From Rhodoferax sp. (GTDB lineage Bacteria > Pseudomonadota > Gammaproteobacteria > Burkholderiales > Burkholderiaceae_C): DNA of 64,000 nt. This document shows positions 3,995 through 50,747 of this stretch, piece after piece. The notes under the pieces were generated by a model. The model did not search any database, was not told where the DNA came from, and was given only the letters and a program-made list of their open reading frames with translations. The stretch covers positions 7,675-71,674 of the forward strand of contig JANPCR010000182.1 in the NCBI GenBank assembly GCA_031431035.1. The letters are read 5' to 3'. Within the stretch, counting starts at the first letter, position 1, and each line of letters begins with the position of its first letter. The translations under genes were made by a program, and so were the position numbers.

Positions 3995-4039
3995 AACCCT
4001 AAACCCTGCAAGTGATAAACATTGATGATAATTCACGCC

Positions 4040-5146
4040 ATGACCACAGAACTCTCGCAAGCCACTCCACCGGGTAACAAAGACGGTTACAAATCAGGTG
4101 AAAAATCGGGTGCAAATTCGGACGCACATGCCGATGGCAACCCACGCCAAGCTCTGGCAAGTGCGCCGCAGGGTCGCCTGGACGGTTCGATCGACTTGCA
4201 CCATTGGGGCGTGATCAGGCTTGAAGGTGCTGACAGCGCGTCCTTTTTGCAAGGCCAGTTAACGCAGGATTTTGTGCTGCTAAAGCCCAACCAAGCCCGT
4301 TTGGCGGCGTTTTGCTCGGCCAAGGGGCGCATGCAAGCGAGTTTTATCGGCTTTAAGCGAAGTGACACCGAGATATTGTTGCTGTGCAGCCGCGACATTT
4401 TGCCCGCCACGCTCAAACGGCTCTCCATGTTTGTGATGCGCGCCAAAACCAAATTGACCGATGCCAGCGCCGAATTTTCTTTGATTGGCTTAGCTGGCAG
4501 CGCGGTTGAAGATTTGAAAGATTCAGTGCAGAACGAGTCGTCAGATGGTCTGCCCGAGAGCCTCAGTGCAGGCGTCTGCTGGCACGCGGGCGACCAAAGT
4601 TTCATAGGTCTGTACGCCGTAGACGGCGTGACCCGCGCCCTGAAGGTGGCCCCAGTCAACCCCAATTTGGGCGACAACAAAGATGCGGCCGCAGCACTGT
4701 CTTCACCCGATCATCTGACCCATGCGCTTTGGCTTTGGGGCGAGGTGCGCAGCGGCATTGCCACCATCACGGCACCCATCGTCGATGCCTTTGTGCCGCA
4801 AATGCTCAATTACGAATCGGTAGGCGGCGTGAATTTTAAAAAAGGCTGCTACCCCGGCCAGGAAGTGGTGGCGCGAAGCCAGTTCAGGGGCACGCTCAAA
4901 CGCCGGGCCTACTTGGTGCATTGTTCGGCTGCCATGGCGGCAGGCGACGAGGTGTTTGGCATGGCTGATGCCGACCAGGCTTGTGGCACCGTGGCGCAAG
5001 CCGCTGCCGCACCTGGCGGTGGTTTTGATGCGATTGTGTCCATGCAGGTGGCTGCGGCGGCTGCGGGAGGTTTGACTTTTGCGTCAGCGTCAGGGGCCAA
5101 AATTGAACTGCTGCCGCTGCCTTACGCCCTGCTGGAGGACATCTAG
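4040..5146 (+). CDS. ygfZ: folate-binding tRNA-modification / Fe-S repair protein YgfZ
   Basis: KKGCYPGQEVVARSQFRG signature near the C-terminus. Low-complexity N-terminal extension. Alternative starts at 4022 and 4025. Confidence 0.8.
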   Translation: MTTELSQATPPGNKDGYKSGEKSGANSDAHADGNPRQALASAPQGRLDGSIDLHHWGVIRLEGADSASFLQGQLTQDFVLLKPNQARLAAFCSAKGRMQASFIGFKRSDTEILLLCSRDILPATLKRLSMFVMRAKTKLTDASAEFSLIGLAGSAVEDLKDSVQNESSDGLPESLSAGVCWHAGDQSFIGLYAVDGVTRALKVAPVNPNLGDNKDAAAALSSPDHLTHALWLWGEVRSGIATITAPIVDAFVPQMLNYESVGGVNFKKGCYPGQEVVARSQFRGTLKRRAYLVHCSAAMAAGDEVFGMADADQACGTVAQAAAAPGGGFDAIVSMQVAAAAAGGLTFASASGAKIELLPLPYALLEDI

Positions 5147-8317: not shown

Positions 8318-8545
8318 CAGCTCCGCGAATGTCCCCCGCCTTCGGCTCCTCCTTGATTTCGCTGCGCTATTCACCCCAGCGCCATCGGCAATCAGCGTTT
8401 AGGGTTGGTTTTTGGCTTTTGAAAGCCTAAAAACACAAGTCCAATTCAACTGGATCAGGTCGACGGCGCATTCGGCGCAGCGGCATCAAGGAGGAGCCGA
8501 AGGCGGGGGACAGCCGCGGAGCTGAGTGCGCCGTCGACCTGATCC
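8318..8545. repeat. GC-rich nested inverted-repeat element
   Basis: 50-bp arms 8318-8367 and 8475-8524 match at 46/50. The right arm is enclosed by a perfect 19-bp stem (8452-8470 / 8527-8545). Central hairpin at 8408-8434. Confidence 0.85.
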
Positions 8546-9174: not shown

Positions 9175-9208
9175 GGCGTTGCGTTCAGGTATTGGGTTTT
9201 AGTGGTCG

Positions 9209-9330
9209 CTAAATGCTACTAAATATATAGCAAACTATGCATATTATTTGAGAGCTAGAGGCCTAAAACACTCACAAAACGGGCCAAAATTGACTTTTAG
9301 GTCAAAAAAGAACCTGCAGGTTCTTTTTCT
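9209..9330 (-). repeat. AT-rich modular repeat, copy A
   Basis: Hairpin AAAAAGAACCTGCAGGTTCTTTTT (9304-9328). GAGAGCTAGAGGC at 9250-9262, ATAGCAAACTAT at 9227-9238 and ATGCTAC at 9213-9219, all read on the plus strand. Confidence 0.9.
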
Positions 9331-10007
9331 CTCCAAAGTGCCTGTTTTTGCATGATTTCGCCAAACGCTGGGGATTTGCAGAAGTCTGCCAGCCAAGCTT
9401 GCAGCGCGGGCCAAGGCTGGCTGGCAAACCAGTCGGGTTGAACGGCCGCAAATTGGCGGACAAAGGGCGCGATGGCGATGTCTGCCAGTCCGGGGTGCGG
9501 GCCAAACAGTGCGGCTTGGTCTGCCAGGCGGTGGTTCAATTGCGCTGCAAACTGGGCGGCTTGATCGCGGGGACCGTAGGCACTTTGGGCACCTAGAGCA
9601 TCAGCGGTCGCAACGCCCATTGCCTGGCGCTGCGGGTATTTGTAAGCGTCCAGCTGCTGTTTGAATGGCCCGTCACACTGGGCGATCAGCGCCATCGCAT
9701 CCGCCAAAGTCCCGCGCGAGGGCGCGAGCCAACGCAAAGGGTCATGTTGCTGCAAGGCCCACAGCATGATGTCCAGGCTTTCTTCCAGCACCTGGCCGTT
9801 TGGCAAAACCAGCACCGGCACCGTGCCTTTGGGCGACGCTTGCAGCAAGGCGGCGGGTTTGTCGCGCAGCAAGATGTCGCGGTGCTCATAGGCCAACCCG
9901 CTGGCAAGCAAGGCCAAACGCGCCCGCATAGCGTAGGGGCAGCGGCGAAAGCTGTACAAGATGGGCCGCAAGGCTGGGCCGACCGAGGCAGACTGGGTCA
10001 AGGTCAA
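9297..10007 (-). CDS. glutathione S-transferase family protein
   Basis: 236 aa with a GST N-terminal thioredoxin-like region ([17 protein letters not shown]...GTVPVL). The last ~11 codons and the stop lie inside repeat copy A. Confidence 0.8.
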
Positions 10008-11171: not shown

Positions 11172-12446
11172 CTACAAGGGCCGCACGGCGCTCGGGTCGG
11201 GCCGTTGCAGCCACGCCGCAAATTCGTCCGCCAACTGCTGGCTGGCCCGGGCGGCGGTTGTCCAGGCCTTCACGCGGCCTGCCAGGTCGTTGCCATAGCG
11301 GGTGAAATCGCCGCGATCCGGCAGTTTTCCGTTGGGCAGCGTGCGCACCCAGTCAGGGTTGGGGGCCAAGAGCAGCACATTGTCCAGGTGGTGAGTGGCT
11401 TTGTGCCGCCATTTCAGGCCTTTGTCCAACCAACCGGGCACCACGGCTTTTTGAAAATGTGGGTAGAGAACCAGAGGCGCAGAAGTCACATTTTTTGAAA
11501 GTGATATCACCGGTGATGTGACTTTTGACTCAGAGGCAGCTTCGGGCTCATTTAATGAGTCTTTTAGGCCTCTAGCTCTCGAAGAATGGCCATTGTTTGC
11601 TATAATATTAGTAGCATTTGGCTGAGATGCCAATTGTCCAGGCGCTCGGCCTGCGGGGCCGACGTTCGCGTAGTTCAAATGCAAGTGGTAATCGGTGATT
11701 CCGCCATCCCAATACGCCCCAGGCGGCGCGCCCGGAATGTTGCGCACCGACTGCAATACGAACGGAATCGAACAGCTGGCCTGCAGCGCTTGCATGAAAT
11801 TGGCATCGGTCAGGGGCACTTGGCGGGTGGCAAAATCAGCCGTGCCAAAGGGCAAAGGGGCCGATTGGCTGGAAAAAACCACCCGCTCCAGCCACGCGCC
11901 CAGCGCTTTGCGGTGCAATCCATTCGCTAAAAACGCGCCCAAATAGCCCAGTGGCGTGCGCAGGCGCTGCTCCCGCGCCAGCAGATGCCGCCCGCGCGAG
12001 GTGATGACGTGCAGGCGATACCTTGGGTTGTGCAAGACCTCAAACACGCGGCCGCCGTAAAAATCTTCCAGGCTGGCACCAAACTTTTCGCTGACAAACT
12101 GGGCCGAAACCCGCTTTTGACCGGGCAGCAGCTCGTAATGCTGGTGAATGTAATCGTGCTCCAGCCGCTCAAAAGCTTGCACGTTGGTCGACTGCCCGGG
12201 GGGATTTCCATGGCCCAAACAGGCCGTCGCCATGCGCCACGCCCCAATGGACGCGCCCACCAGATTTACCACATGGGTCGATGGCGCCAGAAATTCTCCA
12301 AAAATCAGCCGGTCCAGCGGCCCCAAAATTAATCCCTTGGGGCCACCCGCCGCCCCAGCCAGGGTACCAATGTCAGCCGCTTGAAGGCCTCGGTTTTGAA
12401 TATGGCGAAGCGCTGTGGGCCCCGCGTACAGGCAAAGTGCTTGCAC
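11172..12446 (-). CDS. patatin-like phospholipase family protein (carries an in-frame repeat insertion)
   Basis: GASIGAW (GxSxG) nucleophile elbow and WDGGITDY (DG) motif. GTG start. Residues SQPNATNII...SKNVTS are encoded by repeat copy B read antisense. Confidence 0.8.
11485..11622 (+). repeat. AT-rich modular repeat, copy B (inside the patatin CDS)
   Basis: Hairpin around ATCACCGGTGAT (11485-11522). Box1 GCCTCTAGCTCTC at 11568-11580. Degenerate box2 ATTGTTTGCTAT at 11592-11603. Box3 GTAGCAT at 11611-11617. Confidence 0.85.
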
Positions 12447-13488: not shown

Positions 13489-15945
13489 TCAAGGCTTGAG
13501 CTTGGCAAATGCCGAGGCCATGGCGGTCGATTGGGGCGCTGACTGGCCCGCGCCGCCCTGACTGCCTGAACCGCCACGTCCATGTTGCCCACCGCCGTAC
13601 CCGCCACCGCCACCGCCACCGCCTCCGCCACGTTGATTGCCCGCTGGTTGAAAGCGGTTGTCATGCCCGTCTTGTCGTCGGCCAGCGGTTTCACCTGGCT
13701 TCTGGCCTAACTTCATGGTCAAGGCGATGCGCTTGCGAGCGACGTCAACCTCAACCACCTGCACTTTCACAATGTCGCCCGTTTTAACGACTTCGCGCGC
13801 GTCGGTGACAAATTTGTGGCTCAACTGGCTCACATGCACCAGCCCATCCTGGTGAACCCCCAAATCTACAAAAGCACCAAACGCCGCCACGTTACTGACC
13901 GTGCCCTCCAGCACCATGCCCTCTTTCAGGTCTTTGATGTCTTCCAAGCCATCGTTAAAACGCGCCACTTTGAAGTCTGGGCGCGGGTCGCGGCCTGGTT
14001 TTTCCAGCTCGGTCAAAATGTCTTTGACGGTGATCACGCCAAACTGCGCGTTGGCAAACAGTTCGGGGCGCAAAGTCTTCAGCATGTCGGCGCGGCCCAT
14101 CAGACTGGCCACCGGTTGGCCCACTTTGGCAATGATTTGCTCGACCACGGGGTAAGTCTCGGGGTGAACGCCGGTCACGTCCAGCGGGTTGCTGCCGCCC
14201 CGAATCCGCAAAAACCCGGCGCTTTGCTCAAAAGTTTTGGCACCCAGGCCGGACACTTCAAGCAATTGCTGACGCGAACTGAAGGCGCCATGGGTCTCGC
14301 GCCAACGCACCACCGATTTCGCCACGCTGGCGCTCAGGCCCGACACGCGGGACAGCAAAGGCACGCTGGCGGTGTTGAGGTCCACGCCCACGGAATTCAC
14401 GCAGTCTTCCACCACGGTTTCAAGGCAGCGGGCCAAATCGCTTTGGTTCACGTCGTGTTGGTACTGCCCCACGCCAATGGATTTGGGGTCAATCTTGACC
14501 AATTCGGCCAGCGGGTCTTGCAGCCGCCTTGCAATGCTGGCGGCACCGCGCAGGCTCACGTCCACATCAGGCATTTCCTGGCTGGCAAATTCGCTGGCCG
14601 AATAGACCGAGGCCCCGGCTTCGCTGACCACCACTTTGTCAATCGTGCGGTCTGAGACTTTGGCCATCAGTTTGATCAAGTCAGACGCCAGTTTGTCGGT
14701 TTCGCGGCTGGCCGTGCCGTTGCCAATGGCGATCAGGTTCACGCCGTGCTTTTCGCACAACTTGCCCAAAACGTGCAAAGAGCCTTCCCAGTCTTTGCGC
14801 GGCTCGTGCGGGAACACCGTGGTCACATCGACCAGTTTGCCAGTGGCGTCCACCACGGCCACCTTCACACCGGTGCGAATGCCGGGGTCTAGCCCCATGA
14901 CGGTTTTGGCCCCAGCGGGGGCGGCCAGCAATAAATCGCGCAGGTTGTCGGCAAACACTTTGATGGCAACTTTTTCGGCCGATTCGCGCAGGCGGGCGAA
15001 CAAATCGCGTTCGGTCGACAGGCTGAGCTTGACGCGCCACGTCCAGGCGACGCATTTGCGAATCAAGTCGTCGGCTGGGCGGTTTTGGTGTCGCCAGTTC
15101 AAACCCAGCGCAATGCGGGCTTCAGCCAGGCTGACAGGAGCTTTGGCGGCGCCCGTGGCGGGGGCAGCCGCCGCACCTTCTGGCTCAGGCAACACCAGCT
15201 TGGCGTCCAAAATATCGAGGGCACGGCCCCTAAACACAGCCAAAGCGCGGTGCGACGGCACCCGGCCAATCGGTTCGTCGTAGTCAAAATAATCGCGAAA
15301 TTTGGCCACGTCGGCGTTGTTTTCGTCTTTGCCAGTCATCAAGCCCGACTTGAACAAGCCCGACTGCCACAGCCATTCGCGCAGGGCTTGCACCAGTTGC
15401 GGGTCTTCCGCCCAGCGCTCGCTCAACAAATCGCGCACACCGTCCAGCACGGCGGGCACGGTCGAAAAATCGGGTTGTTTGTCCTCTCCTTCGACCACAG
15501 GCTTCAGGGCAATCACGTAGGCTTGCGCTTCGTCGGCGGGGTTCAAAGTGGGGTTGGCAAACAGAGCGTCAGCCAATGGTTCCAGCCCAGACTCGCGGGC
15601 CAATTGCCCTTTGGTGCGGCGTTTTTGTTTGAAAGGCAAGTACAGGTCTTCCAGCGCTTGCTTGGTCGGCGCTGAAACCAGTGCCGCCATCAGGGTTGGC
15701 GTCATCTTGCCCTGCTCTTCAATGATGCCGATCACAGCTTGCAGGCGGTCCCGCAGCTCGCGCAGGTAAGACAGCCGAATTTCCAGCTCGCGCAGTTGAA
15801 TGTCGTCCAGCCCGCCAGTCACCTCTTTGCGATAGCGGGCAATGAAGGGCACCGTGGCGCCGCCATCGAGCAAATCGACGGCAGTTTGGACTTGGTTGGG
15901 CTGAACTTTGATTTCTTGCGCGATTTGCGCGATGATTTTTTGCAT
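13489..15945 (-). CDS. tex: transcription accessory protein Tex (S1 RNA-binding domain protein YhgF)
   Basis: 818 aa. N-terminal Tex helix-turn-helix, YqgF-like and HhH regions and a C-terminal S1 domain (GMVLEGTVSNVAAFGAFVDLG), followed by a Gly-rich tail. Confidence 0.92.
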   Translation of the reverse strand: MQKIIAQIAQEIKVQPNQVQTAVDLLDGGATVPFIARYRKEVTGGLDDIQLRELEIRLSYLRELRDRLQAVIGIIEEQGKMTPTLMAALVSAPTKQALEDLYLPFKQKRRTKGQLARESGLEPLADALFANPTLNPADEAQAYVIALKPVVEGEDKQPDFSTVPAVLDGVRDLLSERWAEDPQLVQALREWLWQSGLFKSGLMTGKDENNADVAKFRDYFDYDEPIGRVPSHRALAVFRGRALDILDAKLVLPEPEGAAAAPATGAAKAPVSLAEARIALGLNWRHQNRPADDLIRKCVAWTWRVKLSLSTERDLFARLRESAEKVAIKVFADNLRDLLLAAPAGAKTVMGLDPGIRTGVKVAVVDATGKLVDVTTVFPHEPRKDWEGSLHVLGKLCEKHGVNLIAIGNGTASRETDKLASDLIKLMAKVSDRTIDKVVVSEAGASVYSASEFASQEMPDVDVSLRGAASIARRLQDPLAELVKIDPKSIGVGQYQHDVNQSDLARCLETVVEDCVNSVGVDLNTASVPLLSRVSGLSASVAKSVVRWRETHGAFSSRQQLLEVSGLGAKTFEQSAGFLRIRGGSNPLDVTGVHPETYPVVEQIIAKVGQPVASLMGRADMLKTLRPELFANAQFGVITVKDILTELEKPGRDPRPDFKVARFNDGLEDIKDLKEGMVLEGTVSNVAAFGAFVDLGVHQDGLVHVSQLSHKFVTDAREVVKTGDIVKVQVVEVDVARKRIALTMKLGQKPGETAGRRQDGHDNRFQPAGNQRGGGGGGGGGGYGGGQHGRGGSGSQGGAGQSAPQSTAMASAFAKLKP

Positions 15946-28212: not shown

Positions 28213-28340
28213 AAAAAAGAACCTGCAGGTTCTTTTTTCTCAAAAAGGCCCTGAAAATGCCATTTTATGAATGAAATAGGCCTCTAGCTCTCGGAAAATA
28301 TATATAGTTTGCTATTTATATTATAGCAATTAAATTTCTG
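28213..28340 (+). repeat. AT-rich modular repeat, copy C
   Basis: Hairpin AAAAAAGAACCTGCAGGTTCTTTTTT at 28213-28238. Box1 at 28280-28292. Box2/box3 ATAGTTTGCTATTTATATTATAGCAA at 28304-28329. Confidence 0.9.
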
Positions 28341-42258: not shown

Positions 42259-42380
42259 AAATTTACTACAATTGTGGTAAATTTGGGTCAAAATCGGCAT
42301 TTTTTTCAAATATATGAACAAAAAGTGCCTCTAGCTCTCTGATTTATTCAATAGTTTGCTATTATTTTAATAGTAAATTG
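42259..42380 (+). repeat. AT-rich modular repeat, copy D
   Basis: Hairpin AAATTTACTACAATTGTGGTAAATTT at 42259-42284. Box1 at 42327-42339. Box2/box3 ATAGTTTGCTATTATTTTAATAGTAA at 42351-42376. Confidence 0.88.
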
Positions 42381-42412
42381 CAGCGAAGCAACCTGAAATT
42401 TGACCCGCCCAT

Positions 42413-46128: not shown

Positions 46129-46163
46129 AAAAGGCCCGAATTCGTTGAGAATTCGGGCCTTTT
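46129..46163 (+). terminator. rho-independent terminator downstream of the PPIase gene
   Basis: 11-bp stem GGCCCGAATTC / GAATTCGGGCC, loop GTTGA, then TTTT. Confidence 0.8.
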
Positions 46164-46165
46164 CA

Positions 46166-46277
46166 TTTGCTATTATTAGCATAGCAAACTATTGATATAA
46201 TTCGAGAGCTAGAGGCACTTTTTATTCATATTTTGGGTTTTTGGAGCGATTTTTAGAAAAAAAGAACCTGCAGGTTC
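46166..46277 (-). repeat. AT-rich modular repeat, copy E
   Basis: On the plus strand: TTTGCTATTATTAGCATAGCAAACTAT at 46166-46192, GAGAGCTAGAGGC at 46204-46216, hairpin GAACCTGCAGGTTC at 46264-46277. Confidence 0.88.
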
Positions 46278-46279
46278 AT

Positions 46280-47173
46280 TTATCTCGAAATCAGCCATCC
46301 CCAGGCCGAAAGCCCGCCAATCAGCACCGGCTGGTGCACCATGTAATACGGCAGGCTCCAGCGGCCCAAGCGGGTGGTCATTTGAACGGGCCAGGGCGTA
46401 GCAGGGTTGGAAGGGGTTAGCAGCAAGGCTTTGAGACGCGGCTGCGGCGCAGATGGCGATGTGAGATCGGGCTTGGAGTTTGAGTGGGAGTTGGAGTTGG
46501 AGTTAGGTCGCCCTGCCCCACCCGCCCGACGTTCCCCTGCCAACGCCCAGGCACCCGCTGCCGCGCCCAGCCACATCACGCCCAGCCAGGGAATCAGCGG
46601 CACGTAATCTTCGGTGTAAGGCTTGTGGGTCACCCAGCCGATCCAATTCAGGGCTTTTGAATTTAACAACTCAGCCGTAGGCCCAGGCAGTGGCACGCTG
46701 CCTGCCAGCCAGCCCAGCGCCAATGTGGCGCCACCCAAAAGCCATAGGGCAGCGGGCCAACGTCCAGCTAAGCCAGCGGTGAGCCGCACCACAATCAGCA
46801 TCACCAGCATGCCGTGCAAAACCCCAAAGTAGATGAAGGTTTTGGGAAACATCAGGTAGGACCCGGCAGTAACCAGCGCAGCGCACACCGCAATTTGCGC
46901 CCAACGCCGCCAAAACCGGGGCCAGCTTTGGCCTTGGCTTACCGCCACGGCTTGGCTGAAACCGGCTGTGAATAAAAACAGGCTCAATATGACGCCGCGC
47001 TGCCAGGTCCAGACCGGGTTGTTGTAAAAGTCCTGCTTGATGTGGCCAAAATTGTTCAAGTCGAAACAAAAGTGGAACACGGTCATCCACAGCATCGCCA
47101 CACCGCGCAGGGTGTCGATAGCGTCAAAACGCGGGGTGCTGGCGGCGGTTTTCAACGGGCTGGTAAGGGACAT
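46280..47173 (-). CDS. DUF1624 / heparan-alpha-glucosaminide N-acetyltransferase-like membrane protein
   Basis: RFDAIDTLRGVAMLWMTVFHFCFDL N-terminus and a polytopic body. Contains an internal (NS)n low-complexity insert. Confidence 0.75.
   Translation of the reverse strand: MSLTSPLKTAASTPRFDAIDTLRGVAMLWMTVFHFCFDLNNFGHIKQDFYNNPVWTWQRGVILSLFLFTAGFSQAVAVSQGQSWPRFWRRWAQIAVCAALVTAGSYLMFPKTFIYFGVLHGMLVMLIVVRLTAGLAGRWPAALWLLGGATLALGWLAGSVPLPGPTAELLNSKALNWIGWVTHKPYTEDYVPLIPWLGVMWLGAAAGAWALAGERRAGGAGRPNSNSNSHSNSKPDLTSPSAPQPRLKALLLTPSNPATPWPVQMTTRLGRWSLPYYMVHQPVLIGGLSAWGWLISR
46475..46504. repeat. hexanucleotide repeat (GGAGTT-type x5) inside the DUF1624 CDS
   Basis: ggagtt tgagtg ggagtt ggagtt ggagtt; encodes NSNSNSHSNS on the minus strand. 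Confidence 0.85.
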
Positions 47174-50621: not shown

Positions 50622-50747
50622 AAAGTCATATCACCGGTGATATGACTTTTCCCGAAAAACCGCCAAAACGCGATTTTATGAACAAAATAGGCCTCTAGCT
50701 CTCGAGATATATCAATAGTTTGCTATATATAATATAGCAATTCAAAT
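50622..50747 (+). repeat. AT-rich modular repeat, copy F
   Basis: Hairpin AAAGTCATATCACCGGTGATATGACTTT at 50622-50649. Box1 at 50691-50703. Box2/box3 ATAGTTTGCTATATATAATATAGCAA at 50715-50740. Confidence 0.9.

Follow-up and report, generated by a model that had tools for sequence, protein, structure and literature searches.

A copy of a dispersed palindromic repeat carried in frame by a patatin-like phospholipase gene of Rhodoferax, probably an old and tolerated passenger

In the 64-kb window, the whole stretch of Rhodoferax DNA analysed here, one copy of a palindromic repeat family (copy B) lies antisense and in frame inside the gene of a patatin-like phospholipase. The explanation that best covers the observations, and in our judgement a very probable one, is that the copy is old, that its translation is a neutral and tolerated loop of the enzyme, and that it has exchanged sequence with other members of its family. 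The coordinates of the repeat copies and of the features of the gene are given in Table 1.

Table 1. Repeat copies in the window and features of the patatin-like phospholipase gene.
Feature	Position	Strand	Basis or remark
Copy A, 3' of the GST gene, 2.2 kb from B, inverted relative to B	9207-9332	-	blastn, profile
Patatin-like phospholipase CDS, intact, 424 aa	11172-12446	-	ORF list, PF01734, Foldseek, homologues
Whole expanded loop, residues 258-324	11472-11675	-	distant homologues, AlphaFold2
Palindromic module of copy B, AAAGTGATATCACCGGTGATGTGACTTTT	11498-11526	+	26/29 identical to the module of F
Copy B, full length, antisense within the CDS, about residues 275-316	11499-11622	+	leave-one-out nhmmer, alignment
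Conserved core of copy B (box 1, spacer, box 2, 7 nt, GTAGCA)	11568-11616	+	alignment
GC-rich low-complexity stretch V262-P276, non-repeat, on the N-terminal side of the repeat part	about 11620-11663	-	comparison of window and L001
DGG catalytic aspartate motif, D247-G248-G249, 10 residues ahead of the loop	11700-11708	-	invariant in 81 aligned orthologues
GASIG nucleophile motif, G64-A-S66-I-G68	12243-12257	-	invariant in 81 aligned orthologues
Copy C, intergenic	28213-28334	+	profile
Copy D, between convergent genes	42259-42383	+	profile
Copy E, between convergent genes; its palindrome overlaps the stop of ORF 46280-47173	46162-46286	-	profile
Copy F, between convergent genes, palindrome type as in B	50622-50746	+	profile

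Six copies of one repeat family are found within the window. The five copies other than B are all intergenic, mostly between convergent genes. A profile built from these five, with copy B excluded, recovers B at full length (nhmmer, E=2e-15, profile positions 4-127), and since the profile came from the other copies the match is not circular and lies far beyond chance. This confirms the first-pass annotation, which had placed a repeat copy antisense and in frame inside the patatin gene. With blastn, B is 81% identical to A over 78 nt (E=1e-15), and the cores of the two copies are 81-83% identical. Within CDS 11172-12446 the segment is AT-rich, with a GC content of 0.43-0.46 vs. 0.60-0.70 in the flanks.

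The layout of the family is an invariant box GCCTCTAGCTCTC, an 11-nt AT-rich spacer and a second box ATAGTTTGCTAT, which together with the ATAGCA located 7 nt further on makes a small palindrome. In copy B the first box is at 11568-11580, identical in 6/6 copies, the 11-nt spacer reads GAAGAATGGCC and the second box, at 11592-11603, reads ATTGTTTGCTAT; in the alignment the last two are exactly as first reported. About 38 nt beyond the core there are alternative palindromic modules, GAACCTGCAGGTTC in A, C and E and GTCATATCACCGGTGATATGAC in B and F, the palindrome of A, C and E being at the same distance from the core as the module of B.

It had been proposed that B is changed at the positions where a repeat would most harm the reading frame. 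The sequence changes are real, but the proposal is overstated. Copy A is also free of stops in the patatin frame, while E has one, C and D two each and F three. The TGA in the spacer is found in D, E and F only, and the change in the second box is merely TAT to AAT (Tyr to Asn), with TAT kept in the close relative L001 (L-numbers label orthologous loci or contigs). The insert length of 138 nt, quoted as a multiple of three, rests on chosen boundaries; the homologous stretch is 124 nt long, 11499-11622. The GC-rich stretch next to the repeat part occurs only in the window and in L001, and it is the most diverged part between them (nucleotide identity 0.854).

The host gene is an intact ORF of 424 codons that stays open through the repeat copy, as had been stated. 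According to Pfam, its product matches PF01734 over residues 58-252 (E=1.6e-7, 32.2 bits vs. a cut-off of 27.7). Both parts of the Ser-Asp dyad of patatins, G-x-S-x-G and the Asp in DG(G/A), are present as GASIG and DGG, and their invariance among the 81 aligned orthologues bears out the earlier remark that the catalytic motifs are intact. The AlphaFold2 model, generated with an 81-sequence alignment, has a pTM of 0.76 and, together with Foldseek, gives the alpha/beta fold of patatins. The closest PDB structures to the model are CapE, patatin-17 (4pkb, 1oxw) and ExoU, with Foldseek probabilities of 0.9-1.0, TM values of 0.43/0.57 and weak E-values (1.6e-3). A protein search finds 7270 homologues with E<=1e-20, and the gene order around the patatin gene is conserved (Tex, HDOD, patatin, UPF0176/rhodanese, GST). 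By its sequence and its model, the product is a patatin-family protein and a predicted phospholipase.

According to the model, residues 262-320 have a pLDDT below 50 and almost no secondary structure, and the loop is flanked by a helix (251-256) and a strand (325-329). At this site distant homologues (n=122, 33-55% identical) typically have 7-9 residues, so that the gene of the window has about 60 codons of extra coding material. Because distant members of the family have such a short connection there, the expanded loop is best seen as a clade-specific insertion into a short turn, and an old one. One of the two readings first offered, that the repeat is tolerated as a surface loop, fares well here: the segment takes the place of the 7-9-residue connection, and the structure prediction that had been proposed as a check predicts it to be disordered.

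To follow the site among relatives, 80 orthologous loci were fetched from genomes named Rhodoferax, Polaromonas, Curvibacter, Acidovorax, Hylemonella and others, and the insert was delimited by the anchors DYHLHL and YPHFQ. The best 120 of the 7270 homologues are 56-75% identical to the protein and 356-416 residues long, apart from one exact copy of 424, and most of these 120 bear a similar peptide at the loop site, e.g. NAINSIANYAYSTRASGQFD. In nearly all 80 loci there is a low-GC segment with the motif xN(S/L)IAxxAxSTRAxGQ(N/F)D at the same site, in the same frame and in the same orientation. An iterated repeat profile matches 66 of the patatin inserts, and the genomes of orthologues with an insert also hold intergenic copies of the family. 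The locus L001, from a Rhodoferax MAG with a protein 93% identical, shares the 70-residue segment, in which 11 amino acids differ. A few shortened inserts, e.g. NYAAGLASDMPQAGLVL, fall within the Polaromonas cluster, which suggests that they arose by secondary deletion.

An alignment with orthologues had been proposed as a check, to see whether they lack the segment. The distant homologues lack it, but the close orthologues carry it too. An equivalent segment of similar sequence in orthologues had been named as evidence against the insertion of a repeat, and such segments do exist; the repeat origin stands nevertheless, because these segments are themselves members of the family, as the 66 matches tell, and their genomes hold intergenic copies. 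Between groups the similarity of the inserts is 0.34-0.42 (normalised), only slightly higher than the alignment-bias null of 0.31 obtained by shuffling and realigning, so the homology of the most degenerate inserts rests mainly on position. For the same reason, conservation of the inserts at the DNA level between genera was dropped as a claim.

The mode of evolution was compared between 295 flanking codons and 47 repeat-derived codons of the window and L001. In the flanks, which are 95% identical at the nucleotide level, 26 codons have synonymous differences only and 13 non-synonymous ones, and the differences are distributed 9/5/30 over the three codon positions. In the repeat part, one codon is synonymous-only and seven are non-synonymous, with a distribution of 3/4/2. 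Four-fold degenerate sites are 0.927 identical vs. 0.913 in the core of the insert. The per-position diversity in the Polaromonas group is 0.09/0.06/0.29 in the flanks and 0.35/0.33/0.38 in the insert, and the Rhodoferax and Acidovorax groups show the same pattern. By these substitution patterns, the insert diverges at about the neutral rate and without codon-position bias, as a tolerated loop should, while the flanking codons on both sides are under purifying selection. The peptide of the insert is therefore unconstrained and only its open frame maintained, which is expected if the C-terminal 100 residues are needed. The insert is thus probably a tolerated passenger and not a functional domain.

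The family is not confined to this gene. A first narrow profile, made from the window copies only, found almost nothing in the other genomes and was replaced by an iterated nucleotide profile seeded from the inserts. In the window and the 80 loci, about 1.5 Mb, the iterated profile gives 224 matches, 158 of them outside patatin genes. By a crude ORF criterion, about one third of the 158 lie in frame in long high-GC3 ORFs at recurrent positions. In 17 loci a family member is found in frame in Tex, between KLVLPEP and VSLAEGRIAL, in the opposite orientation. Related genomes also have members in frame in the gene of a YgfZ-like GCV_T protein and in HrpA, and one read in a third frame in the thymidylate kinase gene. 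Taken together, the in-frame genic copies span two orientations and three reading frames. Many intergenic copies are at positions common to several genomes, for example just upstream of the patatin gene in 20 Polaromonas-type loci. In those groups this is more the picture of an old family than of an actively mobile one; with many copies at positions that are conserved between genera, its current mobility is doubtful. No exact match to the core of the window type was found in a metagenome scan.

From the shared site, frame and orientation, rather than from a dated species tree, we infer a single ancestral insertion into the patatin gene. Recurrent independent insertions at a hot spot, or replacement of the old copy by a new one, would be another way to arrive at the present distribution, but an unlikely one. 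It would suit the linker between NY and the repeat-derived part, which differs in length between groups, and the distal hairpin module, which is present in the insert of the window and absent from most other inserts. It would also suit the variants that inserts share with copies of their own genome in the lineage of the window and in L081 and L083. However, orientation and reading frame are the same in all lineages, and the many members at positions common to several genomes speak for a low mobility at present. Repeat variants are group-specific, and in the three large groups the inserts are more similar to each other (0.59-0.68) than to the copies of their own genome (0.51-0.53), which fits vertical descent.

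For the variants shared within a genome, exchange between genic and intergenic copies offers an explanation. In the window, B is 0.81-0.83 identical to A and averages 0.654 to the other copies when A is left out, a value that none of 62 inserts of other groups reaches (0/62). In a 60-column alignment, however, B is hardly closer to F and C (0.67-0.68) than to some outgroup inserts (0.65), which weakens the case. Copy B is a mosaic: its palindrome is of the type seen in F (Table 1), and its distal spacer, which is unlike the copies of its own genome, is shared with the patatin insert of L082 (19/30), again at odds with a newly arrived copy.

A four-sequence test was made possible by the contigs L081 and L083, where the GST gene is likewise accompanied by a copy. 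The insert and the GST-downstream copy of the same genome are 0.83 identical in the window, 0.72 in L081 and 0.64 in L083, while between the two lineages the inserts are 0.52-0.53 and the GST-downstream copies 0.54-0.58 identical to each other. Since the copies cluster by genome and not by position in two lineages, the test indicates that non-reciprocal exchange or re-copying may have taken place after the lineages split. The comparison uses cores of about 60 nt, with five intergenic copies in the window and a single one in L081 as well as in L083. Downstream of GST, the copy of the window has the opposite orientation to those of L081 and L083, so the strict orthology of these copies is uncertain. 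Exchange is not general, because the YgfZ-like gene of the window shows no copy at the equivalent site (nhmmer --max, E<=10).

Our first reading, that the insert of the window had been overwritten by A, was reversed by diagnostic sites. The inserts of the window lineage depart from the consensus of copies C, D, E and F at 12 sites. Of these, A shows the insert state at eight and the repeat-consensus state at three, and the patatin inserts of outgroups favour the insert state by 45:21. Because A carries insert states at 8/12 sites and the outgroup inserts have them too, the sites suggest, with moderate confidence, that B was largely inherited and that the gene copy donated sequence to A; the same 45:21 preference of distant inserts argues against replacement of B by a new copy. 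Two other loci point the same way. In L064 an insert-like copy is found just 3' of the patatin stop codon, and in L080 a partial duplicate of the 3' end of the gene has its breakpoint at a repeat copy. The process may be gene conversion or re-copying, its direction being read, like the exchange itself, from the alignments.

We consider it improbable that the element is kept for a role in DNA or RNA (as a protein binding site, promoter, terminator or structured RNA) with the peptide as a by-product. Some properties of the family would agree with such a role. The palindromic arms are conserved in the intergenic copies, where 82% of the cells are paired vs. 23-45% with a slid partner, the family has been retained in several genera and occupies at least five genes, and there is a weak sigma-70-like promoter match at 11633-11604. 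Against it, the covariation test on 64 copies gave a score of 0.095 with a shuffle mean of 0.104, and in two pairs both partners had changed. The covariation being no better than in shuffles, the idea of a structured RNA or DNA element, which apparent compensatory changes had suggested by eye, was dropped. RNAalifold predicts no consensus RNA structure. In Rfam there is no match in the window at the gathering score, and at a permissive E<=1 only sub-threshold matches at chance level, on copies F and C. The insert has no terminator-like site in a terminator scan, and its fold in the mRNA sense is unremarkable (z=-2.0). The promoter and terminator scans and the fold gave no signal above chance. 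The insert also diverges at the neutral rate, and several Polaromonas lineages have lost part of it. None of these tests favours a role inside the gene at the DNA or RNA level.

Another possibility is that the loop is native and functional, for instance in membrane binding or regulation, and that the dispersed repeats are fragments copied from the gene. Copying from the gene to intergenic positions does seem to occur, as in L064 and L080, and copy A, with its insert-type states, has no stop in the patatin frame. We nevertheless regard this origin as very improbable: the distant homologues have the short connection, the loop is predicted to be disordered and has no codon-position bias, four unrelated genes contain the element in different frames and the reverse orientation, and most intergenic copies have stops in the patatin frame.

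The other reading first offered, a very recent disruption of a gene now damaged or about to be inactivated, is refuted and hardly credible. In its favour are the full-length composite copy with its close similarity to F and A and a loop that is the longest among all orthologues seen. Against it, L001 has the same insert, with 11 amino-acid changes, between 95% identical flanks, and a segment derived from the repeat occupies the site in nearly all of the 80 orthologues, which span four genera. The flanks are under purifying selection, and the ORF and both catalytic motifs are intact.

The course of events that we favour, an old insertion followed by neutral drift and exchange, would be as follows. 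Copy B belongs to a family of repeats, about 75-125 nt long and spread across Comamonadaceae, with a core made of a GCTAT-N7-ATAGC palindrome and a ...GCTAGAGGCC box and with an optional distal hairpin module. An ancestor shared at least by the Rhodoferax, Polaromonas, Curvibacter and Acidovorax lineages would have received it, in frame and antisense, in the short connection that joins the helix following the catalytic Asp (DYHLHL) to the strand that comes next (LVLYPHF). Since then the copy would have been carried as an unstructured, hypervariable loop in an enzyme under purifying selection, drifting at about the neutral rate and sometimes shortened by deletion. Stops and frameshifts would be absent only because they destroy the C-terminal part of the protein. 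The genic copy would still take part in the sequence exchange of the family, with the gene copy as the donor in the case of B and A. For the patatin gene itself the message is an ordinary one, an intact gene with an old tolerated passenger.

Among the known systems, the family most resembles the RPEs of Rickettsia in its behaviour, by analogy and not as a member by sequence. RPEs are palindromic repeats that occur both between genes and in frame within genes (Ogata et al. 2000, as far as summarised in PMC10969869). Common to both are a dispersed palindromic repeat of about 100-150 bp in intergenic positions and in frame in unrelated housekeeping genes, its translation as an extra peptide, here probably compatible with the fold of the host protein, and its retention at the same gene positions in related species. 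Here we find a dispersed palindromic family with a sizeable fraction of its copies in frame in unrelated genes; as to the surface location of the peptide, the distant homologues have a connection of 7-9 residues at the site and the insert has a pLDDT below 50. In contrast to RPEs, the hosts are free-living Betaproteobacteria and not Rickettsiales, and no sequence relationship is claimed or, between such different classes, expected; the inserted peptide evolves neutrally and is predicted to be disordered, and there are signs of exchange between genic and intergenic copies.

Intragenic MITEs and ERIC-type elements also create in-frame fusions (PMC10969869; Delihas, PMC3184786). They are alike in being small, non-autonomous repeats with stop-free frames that add residues to host proteins. 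In the six window copies, however, no end-to-end terminal inverted repeats or target-site duplications were recognised by eye, and only internal palindromes are seen in the alignment.

The BRE, some 90 bp long, is reported from Bordetella and from several Comamonadaceae, namely Polaromonas, Rhodoferax, Acidovorax and Delftia (Hot et al. 2011, PMC3110155). Like the present family, it lies mostly between genes, while some copies are contained wholly in coding sequences; it is GC-rich (69%), often in tandem arrays, with a consensus starting with TTTTTTTTTGGCCGCGGGCCGCCCAAGGCAAAAAAGCCCCC... (PMC3110155). It is without the GCTAT-N7-ATAGC and GCTAGAGGCC boxes, and BRE was rejected as a name for the family because the sequences in its List S1 share no conserved box with it by eye (PMC3110155).

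The present family is also like REP, BIME and REPIN elements in having short palindromic repeats downstream of genes and between convergent genes, often beside terminator-like hairpins, and in evolving as families within a genome. REPs, however, are extragenic by definition, 20-40 nt long and thus shorter, GC-rich and tied to a RAYT transposase. The genome paper of Polaromonas JS666 reportedly describes a MITE. With that element left outside the comparison and BRE set apart by eye, we found no published description of the family, which is apparently undescribed.

A wider reading would be that an RPE-like family of Comamonadaceae colonised at least five housekeeping genes in frame before the genera diverged, and that its genic copies still exchange sequence, can act as donors and may reseed intergenic variants, such as A or even all the AT-rich variants in this genome. 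We put this forward tentatively and think it rather doubtful as a whole. If the genic copy is indeed the donor, a coding region may serve as a reservoir that reseeds the intergenic repeat variant of its lineage. The family also lends itself to the study of how repeat copies inside and outside genes exchange sequence.

In-frame colonisation of conserved genes is best known from the reduced genomes of Rickettsia; here it is also found in free-living, GC-rich Betaproteobacteria of freshwater and soil, where it persists across genera. It is a natural experiment in which proteins absorb about 20-60 unconstrained residues beside an active site. It also explains a hypervariable low-GC region that could otherwise confuse annotation, alignment and structure prediction in this patatin subfamily and in Tex, YgfZ, Tmk and HrpA.

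Among the relatives' loci, the repeat is also translated within genes other than the patatin-like phospholipase. In Tex orthologues, an in-frame segment of about 25-60 residues comes from the repeat, is flanked by KLVLPEP and VSLAEGRIAL, and has the orientation opposite to that of the patatin insert. The Tex protein of the window has just about 13 GC-rich residues at this site. In the relatives' loci with the segment, Tex is located about 3.5 kb upstream of the patatin gene. The YgfZ-like gene (GCV_T, PF01571) contains the repeat in frame in many genomes, e.g. LAGDAIETIAGGAHPVWAKFDFDAANLV. At the corresponding site of the window gene (about 4500-4600) the segment is longer and lower in GC, and a search there for similarity to the repeat detected none. 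Within thymidylate kinase, the repeat is translated in a third frame (DVLSKLELWAQDARGLG...), and the Pfam match of these proteins is broken into two parts. A copy is also found within the DUF3418 region of the HrpA helicase.

Coordinates of the features in the window, or in relatives' loci (L numbers)
Feature	Window	Relatives' loci
Tex; repeat-derived segment at KLVLPEP/VSLAEGRIAL	13489-15945 (gene)	L013, L016, L020, L035, L038, L042, L044, L047, L048, L053, L056, L060, L061, L063, L071, L074, L075
YgfZ-like gene; in-frame repeat	4022-5146 (gene)	L005, L009, L010, L024-L027, L043, L048, L055, L056, L071, L076, L079
Thymidylate kinase with repeat		L024, L025, L046, L079, L030, L052, L057, L068, L076, L078
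HrpA with repeat		L003, L033, L073
Patatin loop of 11-21 residues		L021, L029, L036, L041, L054, L059, L070
Patatin 3'-end partial duplicate		L080:18087-18200
Repeat copy after patatin stop codon		L064:11141-11219
Repeat copy downstream of GST	9207-9332	L081:4132-4189; L083:12984-13040
Low-complexity codons	11620-11663	L001 equivalent
Palindromic module, one type	11498-11526, 50622-50650	
Palindromic module, other type	9304-9328, 28213-28238, 46258-46283	
AAAAAGAACCTGCAGGTTCTTTTT palindrome overlapping ORF 3' ends	9304-9328, 46258-46290	
GST ORF	9297-10007	
ORF ending in AAAAAGAACCTGCAGGTTCTTTTT-type palindrome	46280-47173	
Nested inverted repeats	8318-8545	

In the patatin gene itself, the Polaromonas-type orthologues with short loops carry no repeat motif there. 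These loops are probably secondary deletions, as the orthologues are nested among relatives with the insert. GC-rich low-complexity codons adjoin the repeat-derived part in the window and in L001, a Rhodoferax MAG (GGCCCCGCAGGCCCCGCGCCAGGCCCA). This stretch is confined to the window/L001 lineage, is the fastest-changing part of the gene and possibly originated by slippage.

Further copies occur at the loci of some relatives. The partial duplicate of the patatin 3' end in Polaromonas eurypsychrophila starts exactly at a repeat copy, which is 92% identical to the gene's insert over 73 nt and is followed by patatin coding sequence; the duplicate is either an artefact of the assembly or the product of recombination at this repeat. 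In L064, the copy directly after the stop codon is 77% identical to that gene's own insert over 65 nt and has insert-specific features in common with it (GCTTCTGATTTGATAGC). Downstream of the GST gene lies a copy whose orientation relative to the patatin insert is direct in two relatives (L081 and L083) and inverted in the window.

Relative to the repeat core, one and the same place is taken by either of two unrelated palindromic modules. This points to an element of modular build, or to a core adjoining different terminators. The terminator-like palindrome overlaps the 3' ends of two ORFs: the GST ORF runs into it and has its final residues encoded there, and the second ORF likewise ends within one. 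Downstream of copy A, the GC-rich nested inverted repeats (...GTCCCCCGCCTTCGGCTCC...) are a different repeat or structured element; their arms of 50 nt are 92% complementary, and those of 33 nt are 88% complementary.
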